Assembly: GCF_013122565.1 (NCBI RefSeq)
Contig: NZ_CP053258.1
Source: Escherichia coli
GTDB lineage: Bacteria; Pseudomonadota; Gammaproteobacteria; Enterobacterales; Enterobacteriaceae
Reading direction: 5' to 3' (one strand)
Length of the DNA stretch: 64,000 nt
In this document: piece by piece, positions 44,236 through 44,462 of the stretch
Position numbering within the stretch: the stretch's first letter is position 1
Layout: the number at the start of each line of letters is the position of its first letter
The notes under the pieces: model-generated
What the model was told of the DNA's origin: nothing
Database searches by the model: none
What the model saw: the letters and a program-made list of their open reading frames with translations, nothing else
Position numbers and translations under genes: made by a program

Positions 44236-44462
44236 AAAAAAAACCAGCAGGTATAATCTGCTGGCGGGTGATTTTACACCAATACTCAGTCACACATGAT
44301 GCAGGCAAGTCAACTTTCAGAATTGCGGTCATCCCACTGCATCAGTTCTTCAAGCATGGTTAATCGTTGTGGGACGCTTAACCAACGCAACCAGCACAAC
44401 TTCGCTGTCGCGGTAAAATAGTGCTGATAAAACTGACGCATGGGGCACCTCCTTGCTTCATC
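44236..44462 (-). ncRNA. sgrS: SgrS small RNA (glucose-phosphate stress, dual-function)
   Basis: 227-nt segment divergent from sgrR, ending in a GC hairpin (ccagcagattatacctgctgg) plus U-run; contains the sgrT ORF and the conserved 3' base-pairing region. Confidence 0.85.
44310..44441 (-). CDS. sgrT: SgrT small protein (PtsG inhibitor) encoded within SgrS
   Basis: 43-codon ORF MRQFYQHYFTATAKLCWLRWLSVPQRLTMLEELMQWDDRNSES inside the sgrS transcript. Confidence 0.8.
   Translation of the reverse strand: MRQFYQHYFTATAKLCWLRWLSVPQRLTMLEELMQWDDRNSES

Follow-up and report, generated by a model that had tools for sequence, protein, structure and literature searches.

The closest described system is the sgr locus of E. 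coli K-12 MG1655, where sgrR (b0069), sgrS (b4577, 77367-77593) with sgrT (b4662) inside it, setA (b0070) and leuD are grouped together; the joint mechanism of SgrR, SgrS and SgrT is summarised in a review (PMC4021124). In K-12 the Shine-Dalgarno (SD) sequence of sgrT is covered by a hairpin made from an inverted repeat, GGGGGTGCCCC, and disruption of this hairpin raises SgrT production (Wadler and Vanderpool, PMC2760806); native K-12 levels of SgrT are too low for detection or for rescue of growth (PMC2760806). Among 15 E. coli strains, only 3 had this SD hairpin (Horler and Vanderpool, PMC2760817), and the same 2009 study already outlined two 3' haplotypes of sgrS for a few genomes and described the sgrR-sgrS control region as highly conserved and required for activation of sgrS.

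The window, the whole stretch of 64,000 nucleotides analysed here, carries an sgrS/sgrT locus that is ordinary, intact, in its usual place and already known. We regard it as virtually certain that 44236-44462 is sgrS, located in a chromosome of the Escherichia coli type and specifying an Hfq-dependent dual-function sRNA that is divergent from the activator gene sgrR. An earlier note on this DNA had described such a unit and left its strand unstated; it is the minus strand. In the following lines and below, nucleotide n of the sgrS RNA corresponds to window coordinate 44463-n.

44236..44462, minus strand: sgrS transcript, 227 nt, from Rfam RF00534 and alignment with K-12
44448..44452, minus strand: sgrT Shine-Dalgarno sequence GGAGG, RNA nt 11-15, from alignment
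44310..44441, minus strand: sgrT coding sequence, 43 codons plus stop, RNA nt 22-153, from translation
44275..44296, minus strand: base-pairing region, RNA nt 167-188, from the duplex with the K-12 ptsG leader
44267..44280, minus strand: small hairpin GGUG-UAAAAU-CACC, RNA nt 183-196, from the fold of the 3' 52 nt
44236..44265, minus strand: intrinsic terminator, with stem-loop 44243-44265 and U8 tail 44236-44243
44463..44529, no strand assigned: sgrR-sgrS divergent control region, 67 bp, with the sgrS promoter and SgrR-dependent activation sequences
44530..46188, plus strand: sgrR, activator of sgrS, 552 aa, 98% identical to K-12 SgrR
43030..44208, minus strand: setA, sugar efflux transporter, 392 aa, 98% identical to K-12 SetA, Pfam MFS_1
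42376-42981: leuD

The earlier note had staked the identification on a match to Rfam or to K-12 sgrS over this interval, and both are there. The SgrS family RF00534 covers 44236-44462 from end to end (232.9 bits, gathering score 37, E 1.6e-65, model positions 1-232 of 232), and alignment with K-12 sgrS shows 225 of the 227 nucleotides identical and the same 5' and 3' ends. The ends are identical in the two comparisons, so that the 227-nt extent given in the note is exact, and its description of the locus as well characterised in E. coli holds in the match to b4577 and b4662. Read on the minus strand, the RNA starts with GAUGAAGCAAGGAGGUGCCCCAUG and ends with GCCAGCAG-AUUAUAC-CUGCUGG(U)8. Folded as a whole it reaches -78.8 kcal/mol (z -4.9 against dinucleotide shuffles); this value and the Rfam E-value of 1.6e-65 together exclude chance. 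Among 5426 complete E. coli genomes sgrS is present exactly once in 5399, and many E. coli genomes, strains of serotypes O26, O103 and O111 included, have an sgrS 100% identical to that of the window. The note's further remark, that an sRNA nested with a small ORF is easily missed by ORF-only annotation, is borne out by the RefSeq-style annotation of matching genomes, which lists the sgrT CDS only and no sRNA. Its internal map needs one correction: sgrT does lie 5' and the pairing region 3', but sgrT spans the 5' two-thirds of the RNA, more than the half given in the note, and the pairing region is confined to the last quarter.

The base-pairing region is the part of the molecule on which the riboregulator function would depend. 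SgrS nt 167-188 pair with positions -29..-8 of K-12 ptsG, across its AGGAG ribosome-binding site, in a 4-8-5 pattern with an exact 8-nt core, CUGAGUAU, at nt 174-181; the complementarity to the ptsG leader expected of SgrS pairing is AUACUCAG/CACC, and the 5-8-4 pattern published for E. coli and Shigella (PMC2760817) is reproduced by the duplex of window SgrS with K-12 ptsG. The K-12 leader served as the target, the strain's own ptsG lying outside the window, and in a tight-window test against 2000 dinucleotide shuffles the duplex came to -27.8 kcal/mol, as against -12.4 +/- 2.7 in the shuffles (z -5.8), none of which was as good. When all 27-nt windows of SgrS were compared, the best ptsG site lay at nt 162-193. 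The seed is accessible in the predicted fold, with a mean unpaired probability of 0.74 at nt 168-187 versus 0.30 in the sgrT segment. Unrestricted RNAduplex runs, in which SgrS nt 154-200 were matched to long segments of ptsG and manX, produced sprawling structures whose interior loops were long, and for ptsG these runs were replaced by the tight-window test; for manX the pairing obtained in this loose, unrestricted run was non-significant (z -1.2).

Nearly all of nt 167-188 (namely nt 167-186) falls within a 25-nt island, CAUCAUGUGUGACUGAGUAUUGGUG, at nt 162-186 (44277-44301), which is invariant between the two types of sgrS allele found in E. coli. The flanks of the other allele differ by more than 30%, and the constancy of the island in spite of this suggests that the seed is under selection.

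The protein arm is where the window and K-12 part company. The 43-codon ORF reported in the earlier note, read from 44441 to 44310, encodes MRQFYQHYFTATAKLCWLRWLSVPQRLTMLEELMQWDDRNSES, which passes the Pfam SgrT family PF15894 with 50.5 bits (cut-off 27) and is identical to K-12 SgrT at 42 of 43 residues, the exception being E32 here for G32 in K-12, the result of an A in the window for a G in K-12 at RNA nt 116. The only other difference between the two RNAs is at nt 13, again A in the window and G in K-12, and it lies in the SD sequence itself. The K-12 SD reads GGGGG and forms the GGGGGUGCCCC hairpin; that of the window reads GGAGG, sits 6 nt upstream of the sgrT ATG in the context GGAGGTGCCCC, and is a canonical SD from which the K-12 hairpin has been lost. 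Local folding of this 22-nt SD context gives -4.5 kcal/mol for the window versus -10.2 kcal/mol for K-12. The window form is moreover the commoner one: exact searches with 65-nt queries spanning -20 to +45 of the initiation region found it in 3348 of 5399 E. coli genomes, and the K-12 hairpin form in 1421 of the 5399.

The window allele would plausibly translate sgrT better than that of K-12; the gain is no firmer than plausible because in the full-length minimum-free-energy fold the sgrT AUG and part of the SD (two bases) are still paired with downstream coding sequence. The low unpaired probability of these same bases, together with the undetectable native SgrT of K-12 and its failure to rescue growth (PMC2760806), could be taken to mean that the locus is a riboregulator only, its sgrT frame being effectively untranslated here as it nearly is in K-12. 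We consider this unlikely. The GGAGG is canonical and well placed with respect to the ATG, the inhibitory GGGG/CCCC hairpin is absent, and in K-12 the production of SgrT was restored by mutations disrupting that hairpin (PMC2760806); the ORF is intact and recognisable to Pfam as SgrT, and the 5' two-thirds of sgrS that bear it are almost invariant across E. coli. A dual-function RNA remains the reading we prefer, and what has been concluded from K-12 about weak SgrT expression probably does not apply to the source strain or to most E. coli. The window protein would be expected to inhibit transport by PtsG, as carried over from the work on K-12 and Salmonella.

At its 3' end the RNA is closed by a terminator whose strength was also pointed out in the earlier note, and rightly so. 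The terminator scan finds a stem of 8 pairs (5 of them G-C) with a 7-nt loop, the T-run starting with the last base of the stem; in isolation the hairpin has a folding energy of -12.7 kcal/mol (z -5.1, with 0 of 200 shuffles as good), and it is paired in the Rfam consensus structure. A U-rich sequence and the small hairpin precede the 8-bp stem and U8, and the small hairpin is the likely first hairpin of a 3' Hfq-binding module, Hfq binding being predicted by analogy.

Beyond the terminator, setA begins 27 bp downstream on the same strand, the spacer being identical to that of K-12. Given this proximity, and given that no separate promoter-like site was found between the U-tract and setA and that setA is activated by SgrR during glucose-phosphate stress (PMC4021124), the 227-nt unit might be thought of as no sRNA gene of its own but the 5' leader in a longer transcript of sgrS and setA, its terminator being a mere attenuator. 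This is very improbable, considering the 8-bp hairpin followed by U8 just described, the annotation and characterisation of the K-12 RNA as a discrete 227-nt sRNA, and the roughly 40% of E. coli genomes in which setA is absent and sgrS with its terminator is kept; read-through into setA would in any case add to the function of the sRNA rather than replace it.

Upstream, the gene lies 67 bp from sgrR, which starts at 44530 on the plus strand, so the divergent arrangement claimed for the pair stands, and sgrS as a whole is located between sgrR and leuD. SgrR contains the expected domains (Pfam SgrR_N, 147.7 bits, and SBP_bac_5). The control region agrees with K-12 at 66 of 67 nt, the single change being at 44513 (-51), a C in the window and a T in K-12, with K-12 as the exception. 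From its spacing, AATAAT at 44470-44475 is presumably the -10 element of sgrS. Another candidate, AAGACA-16-TATATT at 44508..44481, came from a consensus promoter scan and was rejected as the sgrS promoter, since transcription from it would start some 12 nt before the known 5' end.

Within sgrR itself there is a small cluster of changes. Residues 392-395 (window 45703-45714) read PTHC, where K-12 has TIKS and the O157:H7 DNA reads TITS, with about 8 substitutions in 12 nt and no indel. A compensated frameshift was considered for this segment and ruled out, as the DNA aligns gap-free; it is a substitution cluster.

Taken together, the mechanism is most likely the established one, because every element is identical with that of the characterised gene; the sequence contains nothing that speaks against this reading. 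SgrR would activate the sgrS promoter under glucose-phosphate stress, and the largely unpaired nt 167-188 would pair with the ribosome-binding region of ptsG and with other targets, e.g. manXYZ and yigL. Pairing with ptsG would block translation and trigger RNase E decay of the ptsG mRNA, while Hfq-bound SgrS would also repress manXYZ and stabilise yigL. The 5' two-thirds of SgrS would be translated into the 43-aa SgrT, an inhibitor of the glucose transporter PtsG; the double hairpin at the 3' end, with its U8, would serve both for transcription termination and as the Hfq-binding module; and setA, just downstream, would belong to the same SgrR-activated stress response. Induction by SgrR, dependence on Hfq and the action of SgrT on PtsG are taken in this scheme from published work on K-12 and Salmonella; we infer SgrR induction and ptsG silencing in particular because the control region is the same as that of K-12 at all but one position and from that literature.

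Comparison with other E. coli alleles places the window in one of two well-separated groups. Identity to window sgrS is bimodal, at least 99% in 3193 genomes and 80-90% in 2152. To the first group belong B1-type strains (e.g. E2865; O26, O103, O111), which are identical at 227 of 227 nt and have the same sgrR-sgrS-setA-leuD order. The second is represented by the divergent loci of O157:H7, ST131 and HS-02 (L003, L004 and L005, respectively; positions about 2501-2726), and the allele of the O157:H7, CFT073 and ST131 type has no setA, so that sgrS abuts leuD. This setA-less allele is about 89.5% identical to the window overall. It is essentially the same up to nt ~130, all of the divergence lying 3' of nt ~131, and it shares the promoter, the GGAGG SD, sgrT codons 1-36 (the O157:H7 start codon excepted) and the 25-nt seed island. 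Further 3', the terminator stem is kept, the small hairpin keeps its fold with a different sequence, and loops and flanks differ; at the protein level the C-terminus of SgrT is DDRNSES in the window and EGSHSDY in the setA-less allele. Among the five alleles compared (window, K-12, O157:H7, ST131 and HS-02), K-12 is the outlier at nt 13, at nt 116 and at -51. Our larger genome census only adds numbers to the haplotype description of 2009.

The window itself comes, judging by how seldom its sequence recurs, from a rare E. coli lineage: the best identity to the 12 kb at 38000-50000 among complete E. coli genomes is 98.1%, and the exact SgrR protein of the window was found in only 5 contigs of a large public collection (two Logan SRA assemblies, GCA_052983875.1). 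That sgrS should be a decaying relic, non-functional in this lineage, is scarcely credible and effectively refuted already by the sequence, since the rarity of the lineage and the defects seen in others (the sgrT ATG changed to ATT in O157:H7, a frameshift in sgrT of HS-02) stand against a promoter region, SD, ATG, ORF, seed, hairpins and U-tail that are all intact, an sgrS identical to that of many genomes and a full-length sgrR.

With an intact dual-function gene as the reading, we would raise, as a tentative idea which we ourselves rather doubt, that natural sgrS alleles of E. coli set different balances between riboregulator and SgrT. The window allele, with its open GGAGG, E32 and setA-linked 3' end, might then make substantially more SgrT than that of K-12, and the setA-linked and setA-less 3' haplotypes might differ in accessory targets or in stability. 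If this were true, most of the work on K-12 would under-report the protein arm for typical E. coli.

Four other matches to Rfam families, all of them expected, lie in the window:

38107-38256: leu operon leader, 145.8 bits
47762-47861: TPP riboswitch upstream of thiB (the sroA position in K-12), 65.8 bits
10802-10871: STnc40, at the 3' end of secA
10304-10381: naRNA4, REP-derived

A further Rfam match, to RF02797 (PssrA, plasmid-encoded Shigella sRNA A), lies at 16518-16607 on the minus strand with 105.5 bits. It spans the spacer between ftsA (16587..17849) and ftsZ (15375..16526), together with the end of the former gene and the first codons of the latter. An origin in a Shigella IS or plasmid was ruled out here, the site being the chromosomal ftsA-ftsZ junction; the family name is misleading in this case because the match is chromosomal and falls on ftsA-ftsZ.

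Two insertions were also observed. The first, of 1.57 kb at window 46189-47761, lies between the stop codon of sgrR and the TPP riboswitch of thiB. It contains an ORF (46684..47520, minus) for a protein of 278 aa, which has pentapeptide repeats in its C-terminal part (Pfam PF00805, 73.8 bits) and weak PipB2/PipB-like matches. The N-terminal 173 aa of this protein are 79% identical to the 189-aa type III secretion effector EspY2, found at the same site in O157:H7, and the O157 EspY2 gene looks like a shortened version of the 278-aa gene. About 207 of 5426 E. coli genomes have a full-length copy of the insertion, at no more than about 97.5% identity, and it is often annotated as two fragments; E2865 and K-12 are without this EspY2-like insertion. 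The second is an IS621 element at 51144-52535, in the interval from thiQ to yabI, which in K-12 measures only 113 bp. Its ORF (51375-52355, plus) encodes an RNA-guided (bridge-RNA) transposase of the IS110 family, 326 aa long (NCBIfam NF033542, 254 bits), upstream of which is a non-coding leader of about 200 nt of the bridge-RNA type, beginning AGTGCAGAGAAAATCGGCCAG; REP-like sequence flanks the element. E. coli strains C9, PT62, LP5-1 and ET201 share both this insertion and its flanks (99.7-99.9%).

In its overall layout the window is collinear with the secA-dcw-cra-ilvIH-leuO-leu-sgr-thi-ara-polB segment of K-12 in reverse orientation, as judged from ORF sizes. The sgr locus is likewise the reverse complement of the K-12 arrangement, sgrS having in both the same distance to sgrR upstream (67 bp) and to setA downstream (27 bp), and the pairing region, small hairpin and terminator are identical in the two. 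The locus has little importance beyond the correct annotation of a nested sRNA/ORF unit, other than as a reminder that K-12 is atypical at the sgrT ribosome-binding site, where the window carries the common E. coli form.
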